A stretch of 16,938 nucleotides of DNA from Promethearchaeota archaeon (GTDB lineage: Archaea > Asgardarchaeota > Lokiarchaeia > Sigyniarchaeales > SOKP01): the NCBI GenBank assembly GCA_048941285.1, contig JBHLNS010000061.1, positions 1-16,938 of the forward strand, in the 5' to 3' direction. The position numbers and the translations under genes are program-made. The notes below the pieces were generated by a model, which searched no databases, was not told the DNA's origin, and saw only the letters and a list, made by a program, of their open reading frames with translations. Shown here one piece after another: positions 1,183 through 16,476 of this stretch (position 1 is its first letter; each line of letters starts with the position of its first letter).

Positions 1183-2220
1183 ATGAAGTCTGTTGAAATT
1201 GCAGGCAATAAATTCGAAGTTCAAGGCGAGTTTCTTGATCTAGGGCTTCTAGAGATAAAAGACATGGATGAAATATTAGGCTTATCAAAGTTAAAAGATT
1301 TAAAGAATTTAGAGTTAAGCTCAAATCAAATAGTACATATAAAAGGTCTTGAAACTTTAAATGAGTTAGAAATATTGAATTTAGGAAGCAATCAAATAGT
1401 TACAATTAAAGGTTTAGATAACCTAGAAAACCTCAAGATTTTACATTTGGTAAGCAATCAAATAACAGAAATTAAAGGTTTGGAAAAACTAGAAAACTTA
1501 GAGGAACTTTATTTAAGAGGGAATCAAATAACTGATATTGCGGGGTTAAACAACCTAAAATCGTTAAAAAGGTTGGATCTTTCTTGGAATAATATCAATG
1601 AGATTAAAGGTCTCGAAGGGTTAACAAATTTAGAAGTCCTATGGATTATGGGAAATCAATTAAAGCAAATTAAAAATCTTGAAAGCTTGGAAAGCTTAGA
1701 AGTATTAAATCTCGGAGGAAATCAAATTGAAAGCATAGCTGGTCTAAAAAATTTAAAAAATTTAAGAAGTTTTTATGTAAATAATAATCAAATTCAAAAA
1801 ATCCAAGGATTAGACGATTTAGAAAATTTAGAAACTCTATGGCTCAATACAAATAAAATTTCAGAAATAAAAGGGTTAGGCAATTGTAAAAATTTAAGAA
1901 TTTTAAATTTAAAGCAAAATGAAATAAATCAGATAAAAGGGTTATATAATTTAACAAATTTAGAAAATCTATTCCTTTCCGAGAACCAAATAGGAGAAAT
2001 TAAAGGTCTCGAGCCTCTCACGAAATTAGAAACGCTTGACCTAAGTCAAAATCGTATTATTCAGATAAAAGGATTAGAATCCTTGATGAATTTAAAAGAT
2101 TTATGGCTTGCAGATAACCTTATCCCCCAAAAAATAATTGATAAATTGGGAGGCTTAGATTCTGGTGGTTGTGCAAATGATCCAATGAAATTTGTCCAGT
2201 ATTCTCTTATTAATTTGTAA
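1183..2220 (+). CDS. Leucine-rich repeat protein, SDS22-like class (22-aa repeats)
   Basis: 12 complete tandem 22-aa repeats of consensus LxxLxNLxxLxLxxNQIxxIKG, plus partial repeats at each end. No signal peptide or TM segment. Confidence 0.95.
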   Translation: MKSVEIAGNKFEVQGEFLDLGLLEIKDMDEILGLSKLKDLKNLELSSNQIVHIKGLETLNELEILNLGSNQIVTIKGLDNLENLKILHLVSNQITEIKGLEKLENLEELYLRGNQITDIAGLNNLKSLKRLDLSWNNINEIKGLEGLTNLEVLWIMGNQLKQIKNLESLESLEVLNLGGNQIESIAGLKNLKNLRSFYVNNNQIQKIQGLDDLENLETLWLNTNKISEIKGLGNCKNLRILNLKQNEINQIKGLYNLTNLENLFLSENQIGEIKGLEPLTKLETLDLSQNRIIQIKGLESLMNLKDLWLADNLIPQKIIDKLGGLDSGGCANDPMKFVQYSLINL

Positions 2221-4612: not shown

Positions 4613-5710
4613 TTACAGGCTTTCTGCTTGCACATTTGTGCTACCTGTAGATGTCATTCCAGTAAAAGTATACGTATTAGTTGCTGTGTTATAATCATTC
4701 GATGTAATTATTTTTGGATTAGCTCCACTCTCACTAAATCCTCCAGACCCAATCGGAGTATAGCTATTTGAACCTGTGGAAGTAGAACAAGTAAATTTTG
4801 CCCCTATATTTGCTAAGTTATCTCTATAATACACATTAATACTACCTGTTGAGGTCACTAATGAACCATTAATATTAGCACCCATTTCAGTATATTGCAG
4901 AATATTTATCCCGATACTTCCTGTTGAACTTTCCAATCTCCAAGTATACCCTTCAGCGTATTTCATATTATAACTGTTAAAGCCGATAGAACCAGTAGAA
5001 ACCGTTCCTGTAAAATGTCCCCCAATAGAACATTTTGAAAAATTAAAAGTCATACTTCCAGTTGATGTAAATGCCCTTAAATTATGAATAAAATTAACAT
5101 CCTTTGCAGTTAATGCGACTGATCCTGTGCTAGTGCTTAGTTCTACATCCCCTTGGAACAAGTTATTTTTGCCAGCATTCAAAAATATAGATCCAGTAGA
5201 AGTTCTCAATGTAGTATTATTAACAATTACATTATCAGGAACATTCATATTTATCCCACCAGTGCTGCTTAGAATATTAAGGTCATATACTACATCAGTT
5301 CTTAGGGTTAGATTAATTTGTACTTGCCGAAAAACACCAAAAATAAACCAAGTTGTTGCTTTTGCGTCAACTGTGAGCGTTGTTATAGGTGTGCTTTCAT
5401 TAGCCCATGATATCGGGTGAAAGAAATCTGAAAATGATGATCCTTCTACTAAAATACCTTCAATATGTATTTTCAAATCAACTTTAGCGTAATAATCAGT
5501 TGGTGTTTGATTATAATTAATCAAAATTGATCCAATATCAGAATTAATATTAATTCGCTCTATAGAAGATGGAGATGTTGGTTCATAATAATAAGTATTC
5601 TCATAATCAATTGCACCCCAAGTCGTAAAGATTAAAATCCCAAATGTAGTCCCTATAGTTACAACACAAATCGCTACAATAATCAATACCGCAATATGAA
5701 TTCTCTTCAA
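4613..5710 (-). CDS. Membrane-anchored DUF4097/putative-adhesin-like beta-repeat protein
   Basis: N-terminal hydrophobic helix (IAVLIIVAICVVTIGTTFGILIF) followed by nine [T/S/V]STG[S/G] motifs plus SDIGSI. Ser/Thr/Asn-rich. TTG start. Confidence 0.75.
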   Translation of the reverse strand: MKRIHIAVLIIVAICVVTIGTTFGILIFTTWGAIDYENTYYYEPTSPSSIERININSDIGSILINYNQTPTDYYAKVDLKIHIEGILVEGSSFSDFFHPISWANESTPITTLTVDAKATTWFIFGVFRQVQINLTLRTDVVYDLNILSSTGGINMNVPDNVIVNNTTLRTSTGSIFLNAGKNNLFQGDVELSTSTGSVALTAKDVNFIHNLRAFTSTGSMTFNFSKCSIGGHFTGTVSTGSIGFNSYNMKYAEGYTWRLESSTGSIGINILQYTEMGANINGSLVTSTGSINVYYRDNLANIGAKFTCSTSTGSNSYTPIGSGGFSESGANPKIITSNDYNTATNTYTFTGMTSTGSTNVQAESL

Positions 5711-7458: not shown

Positions 7459-7872
7459 ATGGTTGAGAAGTTGAAGTCTAAACTTGAACAATTAGAAATA
7501 AGAAAAAAGGAACTACAACCTAAAATAGATGAGATTAACGCAAAAAGGGAAGAAGAACTCCTAAAAGTCAATAAAAAATATGACCATATGATATATGATG
7601 TTAACTACATAGCTGAACAATTAGAAAATGAATTCTGTAACGATTTAATTAAATCTTATATAGAAATTGTAACACGCGAATTTGATAGAAAACGAAGTTC
7701 TGACATTTATGAGGTCTCAAATGAATTTAAAAATTATAGAAAACTAATTGTTGAATTCGATATGTTCCCTGAAGAATTAATAGATAAAATACAAAAGGTA
7801 ATAGAAGGTGCCCCAATAGAGAATATAATGTATGATCTTGACAAAGTTCAAAAAAAATATATGAAATATTAA
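7459..7872 (+). CDS. Hypothetical protein with N-terminal coiled coil
   Basis: 137-aa ORF with ATG start, K/E/L heptad-rich N-terminus and codon usage like neighbouring genes. Divergent from tatD. Confidence 0.8.
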   Translation: MVEKLKSKLEQLEIRKKELQPKIDEINAKREEELLKVNKKYDHMIYDVNYIAEQLENEFCNDLIKSYIEIVTREFDRKRSSDIYEVSNEFKNYRKLIVEFDMFPEELIDKIQKVIEGAPIENIMYDLDKVQKKYMKY

Positions 7873-8801: not shown

Positions 8802-9221
8802 CTAATCTAAGGCAGCTTGTTTTGCTTTCTCTTTTTCCAAAGTAGCTAATTGTTTTTCTAAAGATTTTATTTCTGATTGAACTTCTTTTATCTGATTTTT
8901 CTTATCATTATCAATTTCTTTCAATTTGGCGTTTAAAGCCTTCGATTTTTCATTTTTCAGCTGATTTAGTGATTTACTAGCCAGTTGAGCAGAAGATTTC
9001 TTTTCTTTCTTTTTCTGGGTCCACTCTTCTACTTTTTGAATAGCTTCATCTCTCAAATTTTCTTCTTCATTTAATTTTAATTTAGCAGCGTCAATTTTAG
9101 GATCAAATTCCTCTTCGATTTCTGCTTCTGCTGAAGCTTCTTTTTTTGAAGCCTCTTCTTCAATTCTGGTTATTTCATCTTCTTTTGCGCTGATCTGACC
9201 TCTAATATACTCTTCAGACAT
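8802..9221 (-). CDS. Hypothetical all-coiled-coil protein
   Basis: 139 aa, almost entirely E/K/A/Q/L in heptad pattern, with a single Pro and a single Gly. Confidence 0.85.
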   Translation of the reverse strand: MSEEYIRGQISAKEDEITRIEEEASKKEASAEAEIEEEFDPKIDAAKLKLNEEENLRDEAIQKVEEWTQKKKEKKSSAQLASKSLNQLKNEKSKALNAKLKEIDNDKKNQIKEVQSEIKSLEKQLATLEKEKAKQAALD

Positions 9222-13892: not shown

Positions 13893-13911
13893 ATTCCTAT
13901 ATCCCTTTTAT

Positions 13912-15534
13912 TTAACTTTGATAGTCCTGTAAATGTATTATTATCTGTTCAAATAATTCTAATGAATCTGAACAAAACCCATCATCTAAAGCATCAATAG
14001 CATTTTTACTTAAAAGCTCTATTTTTTCTAAAAATTGTTTAGCGGCATTAAATTTAGAAATATAGTCATCCCATTTCTTTTTTATGTCATTATTTACAAT
14101 TTCTGAGAGAATTATTGATCCATTTTCAAGAATAGCTTTCATTTTATCAATTTCCATTGAATTTAAAGATAAATTGAAATTTTTTTCTAAGTTTAGAAGC
14201 TGTGATTCAAGTTCTTTTTGTTTTTCTTTGTACTCCTCTATTTCTTTAATCTTTATTTTTGTTAATTCTAAAACTTTAGTATAACTTTCTGCTATTTCAA
14301 TTTTCCCTATTAATTGAGCAAAACCGATAAGTTGAGTACAATCTTTTACAATTTGATTTAACTGATTATTTTCACTCTCGTTTTTTATTCTCTTTTCTAA
14401 TTCTGTAATATCTCTAATAATATTATTATATGATTGTTCAGAAGCTTCTGTTTCATCTTTCAATAGATTTAATTTACTTCGATATTCTGGAACATCATTA
14501 ATATCTAATTGTCTACTGAATTCTTCAATTTTTATTTTCAATTCAGAATATTGATGATTTTCTTTTAATTCTGGGAACTTTTTAGAAAATTTATCAAATC
14601 TCTTAATAAATTCTAATTTTTCTTTAGTATCTTGTACTTTTTTATTTAGATTCTCCCATTTTGTCCTAATTTTTTCATCTAATAGATTTGAGAGAAGAGT
14701 TATTCCATTTTCAAAAATCTCAGTTGCTTTAGATAAATCAAGATTTTCTAAAGAGGAGTTTAATTCTTTTTCTAATAAAATGAGATTATTTTTTATCTTC
14801 TCTTGTCCCGAATTCCAATTTCTTTTTTCCTTTAAGATTAATTCTTTAGCACTTGGTATTAAAGATAAATCATATATACTTTCAAATTTTTCAATAAAAT
14901 CTTTAACCAGGTTATGAGCTTCTAGTACTTTATTAGAAGATATTAATTCCTTATATTCCTTCTCAACTTTAATTGTCTCTTTTTCTAATTGAGAGACAAT
15001 TTCTTTATTTTCATATTTTTCAGTTAACTCTGATATTAACCTTTTTTGTTCTGTTGCAAGAGCATCGTCTTGTATTTTTTTTGCTAATTCTATAATTTCT
15101 TTCAATAGATTAATTGCATTTTTATATTGTTCAGATTTTATTAATTCCTCTGATTTATCTTTTAAAGCATCTACTTTTTCTAAAATTGGCAAAACTGATT
15201 TTTCTTGATGATTTATAATTTTATATAATTCTTCTTTTCTGATATTTAAATTATAAAAGAATTCTAATGGTTCAGCCCTCATATCAAAAGTAATATTTCT
15301 AATAATTCGAAAATCAGGGAATTCATCTTTTAATAACACACGAATTTGAGAAATATGGTTTTTTAAAGCTTGAGTTGCATTTCTCCCAATCCATATATAC
15401 ATTGTTTTTATTTTTTGGATATAAATAGCTAAAATATTTACAATTGTAAACACTTCTTTAATGTTTGCATAAGCTATCTCATCAAAAGTTCCATCAAAAT
15501 TAAGCTTGAAAGTTTTTATCATATGTTCAACCAT
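13912..15534 (-). CDS. Protein with an N-terminal divergent gelsolin-like domain and a long helical-repeat rod
   Basis: Residues 34-96 contain ILAIY..KIKTMYIWIGRNAT...long helix...ITFDMRAEPLEFF, matching the gelsolin-repeat hallmarks (Y/F).W.G..(A/S) and E(P/S).EF. The remaining ~440 aa are helical modules with an internal repeat (244-305 vs 439-500). Confidence 0.75.
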   Translation of the reverse strand: MVEHMIKTFKLNFDGTFDEIAYANIKEVFTIVNILAIYIQKIKTMYIWIGRNATQALKNHISQIRVLLKDEFPDFRIIRNITFDMRAEPLEFFYNLNIRKEELYKIINHQEKSVLPILEKVDALKDKSEELIKSEQYKNAINLLKEIIELAKKIQDDALATEQKRLISELTEKYENKEIVSQLEKETIKVEKEYKELISSNKVLEAHNLVKDFIEKFESIYDLSLIPSAKELILKEKRNWNSGQEKIKNNLILLEKELNSSLENLDLSKATEIFENGITLLSNLLDEKIRTKWENLNKKVQDTKEKLEFIKRFDKFSKKFPELKENHQYSELKIKIEEFSRQLDINDVPEYRSKLNLLKDETEASEQSYNNIIRDITELEKRIKNESENNQLNQIVKDCTQLIGFAQLIGKIEIAESYTKVLELTKIKIKEIEEYKEKQKELESQLLNLEKNFNLSLNSMEIDKMKAILENGSIILSEIVNNDIKKKWDDYISKFNAAKQFLEKIELLSKNAIDALDDGFCSDSLELFEQIIIHLQDYQS

Positions 15535-15580: not shown

Positions 15581-15595
15581 TTTTAAACGTTTGCG
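15581..15595 (-). promoter_or_regulatory. BRE + TATA promoter of the gelsolin-like operon
   Basis: The minus strand reads CGCAAACG-TTTAAAA, implying a TSS near 15555-15559. Confidence 0.55.
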
Positions 15596-15690: not shown

Positions 15691-16476
15691 TTATTTTATT
15701 GGTTTTAATTTCCAAATTTTATATGATTCTAATACAAAAATTACTGTTCCCAAAATTAAAAAAAATAATAAAAGTAAATTAATGGGATCATAAAAGAAAT
15801 GTAACCCCTGAATCATAATAAGTATTAAAAATATAATAAATCCAAATGAATAGAATATCAAATAGAGTGAAATTTTGGGAATAGTTCGACTTCCAATGCG
15901 AAAAAATAATCTTAAAACACCAATTTTCACCTCTTCGTTTAAGGAATATTTACCTTCTTCATCATCTTTTGAGATAATTCCTGCTTTAAGTAATTTAGAA
16001 ATTTGATAAGAAACTGTTCCAGAAGATGATAAATTTAATGCTTTTTGTATTTCCCTTACTCCTGCATGCCTATGAGTAAAAAAATACCAATAAATTTGCA
16101 AAGTTTTACCTTGCAAATAATCCTCAGGAATTTCAGCTTTGATTTTTGGTATTTCCTCTAAGATTTCTATAGGTTCAGGAGTAATTTTTTCAATACGAGG
16201 TTTTTCTAAGAAATGAATCCCTATAATAAAAAAACCGTAACAAATGAATACAATAATTGAAAAGTACAGAAAAAAATCTATGATTTGTTGATTGATAATA
16301 CTTTGAGAATACATAATTAAGAAGTATATTGTCATTATACCTTGTAGGATTGTCAGGCAATGAATAATTCTTTTGAATGTATAATTTAATAATGGTTTAT
16401 AATGATTTTTTCCGAGTTTAGATCCAAAATTACTTTCAGATTCTTTTTTATTACTATGGCTTTCTTGGGAACTCAT
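15691..16476 (-). CDS. Membrane-tethered winged-HTH protein (2 TM - wHTH - 2 TM), putative transcriptional regulator
   Basis: Central LQGKTLQIYWYFF....AGVREIQKALNLSSSGTVSYQISKLLKAGII.KDDEEGKY is a wHTH. Hydrophobic pairs lie at approximately aa 38-57 and 65-90, and at approximately aa 203-223 and 232-251. Confidence 0.85.
   Translation of the reverse strand: MSSQESHSNKKESESNFGSKLGKNHYKPLLNYTFKRIIHCLTILQGIMTIYFLIMYSQSIINQQIIDFFLYFSIIVFICYGFFIIGIHFLEKPRIEKITPEPIEILEEIPKIKAEIPEDYLQGKTLQIYWYFFTHRHAGVREIQKALNLSSSGTVSYQISKLLKAGIISKDDEEGKYSLNEEVKIGVLRLFFRIGSRTIPKISLYLIFYSFGFIIFLILIMIQGLHFFYDPINLLLLFFLILGTVIFVLESYKIWKLKPIK

Follow-up and report, generated by a model that had tools for sequence, protein, structure and literature searches.

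We analyzed a stretch of 16,938 nucleotides (positions 1 to 16,938 of contig JBHLNS010000061.1, assembly GCA_048941285.1; hereafter the window) from a Promethearchaeota archaeon of the order Sigyniarchaeales within the Lokiarchaeia. We focus here on one open reading frame (ORF), which lies on the minus strand, a point absent from the original prediction made from the sequence alone, and encodes a protein of 540 amino acids (aa) with a gelsolin-like head (aa 1–99) followed by a long helical rod (aa 100–540), hereafter the head-rod protein. Within one order, a head of the ProGel type has been placed on a long modular rod. During evolution this rod changes in length through duplication of its units, and a second copy of it, lacking the head, accompanies the gene. 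In the Asgard 1DGelX proteins, a single gelsolin domain is combined with a domain X for which a coiled coil is predicted (Akil et al. 2020, PNAS, PMC7444086). Our working hypothesis, to which we give an even chance, is that the head-rod protein is a lineage-specific member of this class and would act as a linker or spacer associated with actin filaments.

The gelsolin-like head

The head-rod protein belongs to a conserved family. Because 135 relatives were found at E ≤ 1e-3, with lengths of 536–548 aa in 99 of the 119 listed, the gene is evidently under selection; the other listed relatives measure 559–569 aa (four), 735–739 aa (six) or 345–347 aa (three), or have other lengths and are in part fragments (seven). 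The assigned start agrees with the alignment, in which 38 of 38 family members begin at M1. Where relatives carry source names, these are "hypothetical protein" from Promethearchaeota or Lokiarchaeota assemblies, and one of the relatives is Lokiarch_48210 of GC14_75 (45% identity), of which we found no mention in the literature searched. The whole 540-aa protein matched no Pfam family at E ≤ 1, including PF00626 (gelsolin), CH, MIT and TPR, and no NCBIfam model above noise.

The original prediction had recognized a divergent gelsolin-like domain from two motifs, and these lie where it had placed them (YIWIGRNA at aa 46–53 and EPLEFF at aa 88–93). An exhaustive HMMER search with aa 1–120 against 1.84 billion cluster representatives returned 76 proteins at E ≤ 1e-3, and in 75 of these the match starts within the first 38 residues, the exception being a low-complexity match. 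The window's head was aligned with 11 short members of this set, and the profile of these 12 sequences matched Thor ProGel in the PDB (7c2f_B, E 5.2e-7) as well as adseverin (5.8e-6), villin (3.8e-5), Loki 2DGel (7.6e-3) and Heimdall 2DGel (0.04); the single head sequence reached 7c2f_B at E 0.096 only. The gelsolin assignment was returned by the profile comparison with the PDB but not by the Pfam family.

Structure prediction gave the same answer. The AlphaFold2 (AF2) model of the head, computed from the 12-sequence alignment (predicted local distance difference test (pLDDT) 86.6, predicted template modeling score (pTM) 0.79), has strands at aa 6–11, 17–20, 34–39, 44–49 and 79–84, a long helix at aa 55–71 and a short helix at aa 90–96. 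This is the layout of the gelsolin/ADF-H fold, in which a central mixed β-sheet lies between a long and a shorter helix; thus, one of the outcomes that the original prediction had named as refuting it, an N-terminal domain with no gelsolin fold, did not occur. In Foldseek, the head model found 7c2f_B first (E 8.6e-6, TM-score 0.81 by target), and VIA-align superposed it on ProGel over 88 of 88 residues with a Z of 11.9 and a root-mean-square deviation (rmsd) of 1.9 Å; the other Foldseek matches listed and the 50 VIA-align matches listed are all of the gelsolin family. W48 and G50, which form a W-x-G core that may correspond to the "DWG" motif of gelsolin, are invariant in the family alignment and in the 12-sequence head alignment. 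Because profile, AF2 model, Foldseek and VIA-align agree, we conclude that aa 1–99 are, by sequence comparison and prediction, a divergent ProGel-type gelsolin-fold domain. There is no second gelsolin domain in the protein, in that the head profile matches only aa 1–120 of the ORF. Thor ProGel (PDB 7C2F chain B) is the best match to the head by both sequence and structure and probably has the W-x-G core in common with it, yet it is a free-standing protein of 94 aa whereas the head is fused to a rod, and the identity between the two is 20–22%. The long helix at aa 55–71 is presumed to be the main actin-contact helix of the head.

As judged from the alignments, constraint is much tighter on the head than on the rod: 45 of 116 versus 18 of 424 columns are invariant, and the median identity to the query is 77% versus 45%. 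A constraint of this strength would fit binding to a very conserved partner. Lokiactin is 96–100% identical across genera of the same family and is encoded in the genome from which the window comes (441 bits to PF00022). A search of this genome with PF00626 gave four matches above the cut-off at three loci, the head-rod ORF not among them, and phmmer detected no second copy of the head.

The modular rod, its headless paralogue and its length series

The full-length AF2 model, for which 38 family members were aligned (mean pLDDT 80, rod blocks mostly 85–96, pTM 0.47), is all-helical in the rod; of note, this run models the head poorly, and for the head we rely on its separate model. Each module of the rod consists of a long helix (34–48 aa) and a short helix (15–18 aa), and modules M1 to M7 start at aa 100, 157, 227, 287, 350, 412 and 482. 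The original prediction of about seven modules of 60–65 aa is borne out by the model, in which seven units are seen, but it does not hold at the level of sequence for all modules: in HHalign comparisons of module against module, three of the 21 pairs stand out (M3 with M6, probability 98.7%, E 2.3e-16; M4 with M7, 94.2%, E 1.1e-7; M1 with M5, 78%, E 1.8e-5). We rejected seven repeats as a sequence-level claim because the remaining 18 pairs have probabilities below 50%.

The two repeats that had been noted around W293 and W488 are genuine. The motifs are present where they were described (QEKIKNN...SSL at aa 244–262, ENGITLL...TKW at aa 275–293, QKELESQ...LSL at aa 439–457 and ENGSIIL...KKW at aa 470–488), both tryptophans are invariant in the 38 aligned family members, and HHalign aligns aa 214–344 with aa 409–536 over 128 columns with a probability of 98.2%, an E-value of 3.9e-14 and 24% identity; the two 50-aa repeat stretches are identical at 18 of 50 residues. 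The rod evidently contains a three-module super-repeat of ~195 aa. Its C-terminal cap is retained in most length variants: the corresponding rod hidden Markov model (HMM) positions, 390–429, recur at the extreme C-terminus of many representatives that are 302–928 aa long and of 775-aa forms, and the cap residues L508, L516, I531 and Y538 are invariant.

With the full-length model, Foldseek gave no PDB match at E ≤ 1e-3. VIA-align, run against 48,161 representative chains, superposed pieces of ~62 aa (aa 112–174, 242–305, 371–434 and 436–496) on three-helix units with an rmsd of 1.0–1.7 Å, these units being MIT domains of Vps4/SKD1/MITD1, Vta1, the katanin p60 N-domain and designed bundles. Because the Z values for the rod pieces (8.6–10.3) are below the caution level of the tool for helical folds (~13), we read these superpositions as probably reflecting geometry and not kinship. 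Each piece runs from midway along a long helix, through a short helix, to midway along the long helix that follows, and from the piece boundaries relative to the AF2 helix positions we infer that the rod would be a row of small three-helix bundles, with continuous helices shared between neighbors. In the ESM Atlas, the first match to the rod (0.83) was a Promethearchaeota cluster of 348 aa, and no named look-alike was returned.

The gene directly downstream of the head-rod ORF encodes a protein with 31% identity to the head-rod protein over 210 aa (BLASTP, E 2e-18), an acidic N-terminus and no Pfam family. It lacks the head and is, hence, a rod-only paralogue; among 8713 six-frame ORFs of the genome, the rod matched only the head-rod ORF and this paralogue. 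At 10 of 11 loci from relatives, the ORF directly downstream is likewise rod-only, the eleventh locus stopping at a contig edge, and the tight spacing of the pair is likewise seen at relatives' loci. The pair is also present in other genera, at three of three loci with downstream DNA (L068–L070), e.g. as 352 + 347 aa and 775 + 695 aa. In Pfam searches, the long relatives and the paralogues had no known domain except for a compositional His-rich match in one protein. The gene upstream of the pair is not conserved, and the convergent methyltransferase gene downstream is conserved within the genus. The 19-nucleotide spacer between the two ORFs suggests that the pair may be on one transcript. Separately, we note a TATA-box-like heptamer, TTTAAAA, at 15581–15587 on the minus strand, 47–53 nucleotides 5' of the head-rod ATG, which is possibly an archaeal promoter element of the two-gene unit. 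The gene directly upstream of the head-rod ORF (15691–16476, minus strand), whose position is not conserved in relatives, encodes a 261-aa predicted membrane protein with a central winged-helix motif (weak HTH_5/HTH_24/MarR matches, E 0.004–0.01). Free-standing ORFs of ~160–200 aa that match only rod residues ~115–250 are present at separate loci in many of the family's genomes (e.g. G225:C7:97990-98397 and G147:C199:2773-3192), and none was found in the genome of the window.

The length variants of 345, 540 and 737 aa are one ~195-aa unit apart, the 345-aa form having one unit fewer and the 737-aa form one more than the head-rod protein. The rod HMM was matched by 52 of 74 head-bearing representatives, including 47 of the 51 that are at least 290 aa long; these 47 have total lengths of 298–1417 aa, and the first modules and the last 40 residues are common to many of the rod-matching representatives. 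On this comparison of lengths and alignments, rod length changes in whole-unit steps between relatives, evidently by unit duplication.

The distribution of the protein is narrow. At E ≤ 1e-5, the protein query matched 53 of 301 genomes across the phylum, all in two families of one order (46 of 68 and 6 of 7 genomes versus 0 of 225 elsewhere). The family profile matched 69 of 91 and 7 of 9, i.e. 76 of 100, genomes in the window's own order and none of 200 genomes in 28 other families of the phylum. The head profile alone matched 170 of 301 genomes and was strong only in the own order. Among the weaker head-bearing proteins, the 15 that we fetched, from other families and from the own order, have a different domain X, consisting of a linker rich in P, S, T and K and a β-rich C-terminal domain, unlike the helical rod described here, and the rod HMM had no match at E ≤ 10 in 16 ORFs of such proteins. 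The genome of the window itself encodes a second head-plus-X protein of 359 aa (L006:1417-2496, plus strand, contig C30) whose head is gelsolin-like but of a different kind (head profile E 1.4e-9) and is followed by a linker and, at the C-terminus, by a HeH/Rho_N-like motif (E 2.9e-5); its relatives are ~285–335 aa long and occur in several Asgard families.

A putative Lokiactin-filament linker and its alternatives

The head-rod protein shares with Asgard 1DGelX proteins one N-terminal ProGel-related gelsolin/cofilin-type domain, the lack of a second gelsolin domain, and a C-terminal non-gelsolin domain X that is helical or coiled coil, here the all-helical segment of aa 100–540 in the AF2 model. 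1DGelX-like architectures are stated to occur in Lokiarchaeota too (PMC7444086), and two 1DGelXs are reported in MKD1 and three in GC14_75 (PMC9433394), the latter also holding the 45%-identical member of the head-rod family. In L. ossiferum, nine gelsolin-homology proteins are reported, five of which were enriched in Lokiactin co-immunoprecipitation (PMC13716822). The two kinds of protein differ in domain X, which here spans 440 aa, is built of seven modules in series, includes an internal duplication and was found only in the window's own order. Thor 1DGelX runs near actin on gels and is, thus, much shorter than the head-rod protein, and neither a conserved headless paralogue nor stepwise lengths are mentioned for it in the available text of PMC7444086. 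The absence of family profile matches in the 28 other Asgard families suggests that the X domain here differs from that of Thor 1DGelX. The original prediction had considered the architecture undescribed; this does not hold for the class, which was published in 2020, and is a fair statement for this particular rod, because no account of the rod, its paralogue operon or its length series was found in the published text examined, supplementary lists of which may hold the family.

Building on these observations, we suggest how the head-rod protein could work as a linker. The head would dock on Lokiactin in the cleft that separates subdomains 1 and 3 (the gelsolin/cofilin site), the position that Thor ProGel takes on rabbit actin. 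The modules would make up a string of small three-helix bundles linked by uninterrupted long helices, i.e. an elongated spacer of ~20 nm. A second contact from the rod, alone or with the probably co-transcribed paralogue, could be self-association, binding to the side of the filament or binding to another partner. With this contact, what is otherwise a weak single-domain binder of actin would become a filament-associated linker for bundling or tethering Lokiactin filaments; rod length would set the reach of the linker. Severing or nucleation, as in Thor 1DGelX, may accompany linking. As support for this hypothesis, we count the gelsolin homology and the invariant W-x-G core of the head, the presence of Lokiactin and other gelsolins in the genome, the constraint on the head, the periodic rod, the length series, the adjacent paralogue and the biochemistry of the class.

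The comparison with spectrin/α-actinin made in the original prediction concerns the logic of head plus rod. Shared are a head, here putatively actin-binding, on tandem three-helix units that, as read here from the model, apparently share a continuous helix, and a rod length that evolves by unit duplication. Spectrin and α-actinin have a pair of CH domains versus a gelsolin head here, where Pfam gave no CH match, and a spectrin repeat is ~106 aa long versus ~62 aa for the modules here. Drebrin/Abp1-type proteins are a further precedent, in which an N-terminal ADF-H domain, of the gelsolin superfamily, is followed by charged helical or coiled-coil segments that help to bind or bundle F-actin; their helical regions are not tandem three-helix modules, and they have SH3 or proline-rich tails, which are absent in the head-rod protein.

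Several points weigh against a linker. Thor ProGel, the nearest solved relative of the head, binds rabbit actin weakly, with a dissociation constant (Kd) of 337 µM (PMC7444086), and the gelsolin fold is also present in Sec23a, for which binding to actin has not been demonstrated (figure legend, PMC7444086). PF00626 was not matched at E ≤ 1 by either the full protein or the head alone, and the full-length family profile found no gelsolin chain in the PDB; its 11 weak matches included none to gelsolin, spectrin or MIT, and the best was a designed helical repeat (E 0.029). No spectrin or α-actinin chain was among the Foldseek or VIA-align matches listed. Each chain has one head. The putative elongated shape of the rod is read from alignment ranges, and the full-length model has a modest pTM. 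Within the genus, the paralogue is ~317–355 aa long while the head protein is 345, 540 or 737 aa long; because the length of the paralogue does not follow this series, side-by-side pairing along the whole rod is argued against, and we downgraded this possibility after considering it. Finally, the family profile matched only 20 of 33 genomes in the own genus and, therefore, the head-rod protein seems dispensable.

In a stronger version of the linker hypothesis, the head-rod protein and its headless paralogue would form a heteromeric rod of tunable length, a spectrin-like (β/α) logic invented independently in one lokiarchaeial order, and would crosslink or tether Lokiactin at a spacing set by the modules. 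We regard this version as unlikely; if true, these archaea would possess a linker system of head-plus-rod design that carries its own molecular ruler and shapes their actin-filled protrusions.

The alternative that survives best, which we consider possible although not probable, is that the head-rod protein regulates filament dynamics in the manner of 1DGelX, i.e. it would sever or nucleate with the rod lying along one filament, and any bundling would be incidental. The Kd of Thor 1DGelX for rabbit actin is 7.7 µM, and the protein nucleates, severs and bundles in the absence of calcium, severing robustly and nucleating at low concentration (PMC7444086). Its authors propose this mechanism for it and hypothesize a filament side-binding element in its C-terminal extension (PMC7444086). 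Because the characterized Thor protein both severs and bundles, the claim of the original prediction that the architecture resembles a crosslinker "rather than a severing gelsolin" cannot be asserted. One head per chain suffices for this activity, no dimer being needed, and an elongated helical rod whose modules are all of about the same length could track the subunit repeat of a filament. However, because the rod was not found outside its own order (0 of 200 genomes, 28 other families), homology of domain X gives no basis for carrying over the Thor result, and rod lengths of ~190 to ~1300 aa and a conserved headless paralogue are not obviously needed for severing.

The points raised above about PF00626, Sec23a and the 20–22% identity to ProGel also speak for a second alternative, as does the observation that no actin or actin-regulator gene adjoins the pair in the window. 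Here, the head would be a gelsolin-fold surface for a non-actin protein–protein contact, as in Sec23/24, and the protein a helical scaffold or filament-former in an actin-independent process. We think this quite improbable: the best sequence and structure matches of the head are all actin-binding members of the gelsolin family, with ProGel, which was crystallized on actin, in first place; PF00626 scores of 20.9 and 18.7 bits (cut-off 21), as well as 16.4 and 16.6 bits, in distant head-bearing proteins bridge to true gelsolins; and the head, like Lokiactin, is conserved to an extreme degree.

Least likely of all, and to our minds very doubtful, is that the rod is an MIT/TPR-like peptide-binding array, the protein then being an adaptor that couples actin filaments to partners with helical motifs, e.g. 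of the ESCRT-III type, because the superpositions of the ~62-aa model pieces on MIT domains (2w2u_B, Z 9.7, rmsd 1.2 Å over 63 residues; also 2cpt, 4a5x, 2jq9, Vta1 and the katanin p60 N-domain; for the MIT-type superpositions, Z 9.3–9.7, rmsd 1.2–1.6 Å, 59–64 residues) and the weak TPR-type matches just after the head in the family profile (PP5 TPR, E 0.31) and in some relatives are set against Z values that are all ≤ 10.3, below the caution level for helical bundles, equal scores for designed three-helix proteins, no MIT or TPR Pfam family at E ≤ 1, and Foldseek TPR matches with E ≥ 6e-3 and rmsd values of tens of angstroms.

Returning to the linker hypothesis, should the pair link or space filaments, it would represent a counterpart, of independent origin, to the eukaryotic head-plus-rod crosslinkers. 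Owing to its conserved head and its natural range of lengths, a linker would also provide a tractable handle on the organization of Lokiactin bundles. If the head-rod protein merely severs or nucleates as Thor 1DGelX does, the class would still be extended by a structurally distinct domain X. While the class of architecture is already published, we think it fair to call the particular form of this rod, its operon and its length series undescribed in the text examined.

Feature coordinates and other genes of the window

Table 1 Coordinates of the head-rod gene, its parts and its paralogue in the window
Feature	Position	Strand	Basis and remarks
Whole ORF	13912..15534	minus	ATG start, 540 aa + stop; gelsolin-like head, then helical modular rod (ORF list, translation)
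Head, aa 1–99, ProGel-type gelsolin domain	15238..15534	minus	Profile, AF2 model, Foldseek, VIA-align
Long helix of head, aa 55–71	15322..15372	minus	AF2 helix position; Q55, L57, K58, I64, R65 and K69 invariant
Rod, aa 100–540, seven modules	13915..15237	minus	AF2 full-length model
Internal repeat copy 1, aa 214–344	14503..14895	minus	HHalign self-comparison of rod alignment
Internal repeat copy 2, aa 409–536	13927..14310	minus	HHalign; module pairs M3~M6 and M4~M7
C-terminal cap, aa 501–540	13915..14034	minus	Rod-HMM positions 390–429, kept in most length variants
Headless rod paralogue, 331 aa	12897..13892	minus	BLASTP, synteny in relatives
19-nucleotide spacer, head-rod stop to next ATG	13893..13911	minus	Purine-rich just 5' of the ATG; read from sequence

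The G+C content across the window is 24–35%. The other genes, which are unrelated to the head-rod protein and are housekeeping genes or genes of unknown function, encode an AlaX-like editing domain, a leucine-rich repeat protein, glutamate dehydrogenase, SCP2, flavodoxin, TatD, pyroglutamyl peptidase, DUF6125, aconitase and a methyltransferase. The leucine-rich repeat protein (1183–2220, plus strand, 345 aa) consists nearly entirely of such repeats (LRR_4, 11 stretches, E 7.3e-78). The gene at 4613–5710 (minus strand) encodes a 365-aa protein with an N-terminal hydrophobic segment and many "STGS"-containing repeats, with no Pfam family at E ≤ 1e-4, and is overlapped by an antisense ORF of 97 aa (5127–5420), which is probably spurious. 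Two further ORFs, at 7459–7872 (plus strand, 137 aa) and 8802–9221 (minus strand, 139 aa), have no Pfam family and encode highly charged, probably helical proteins.

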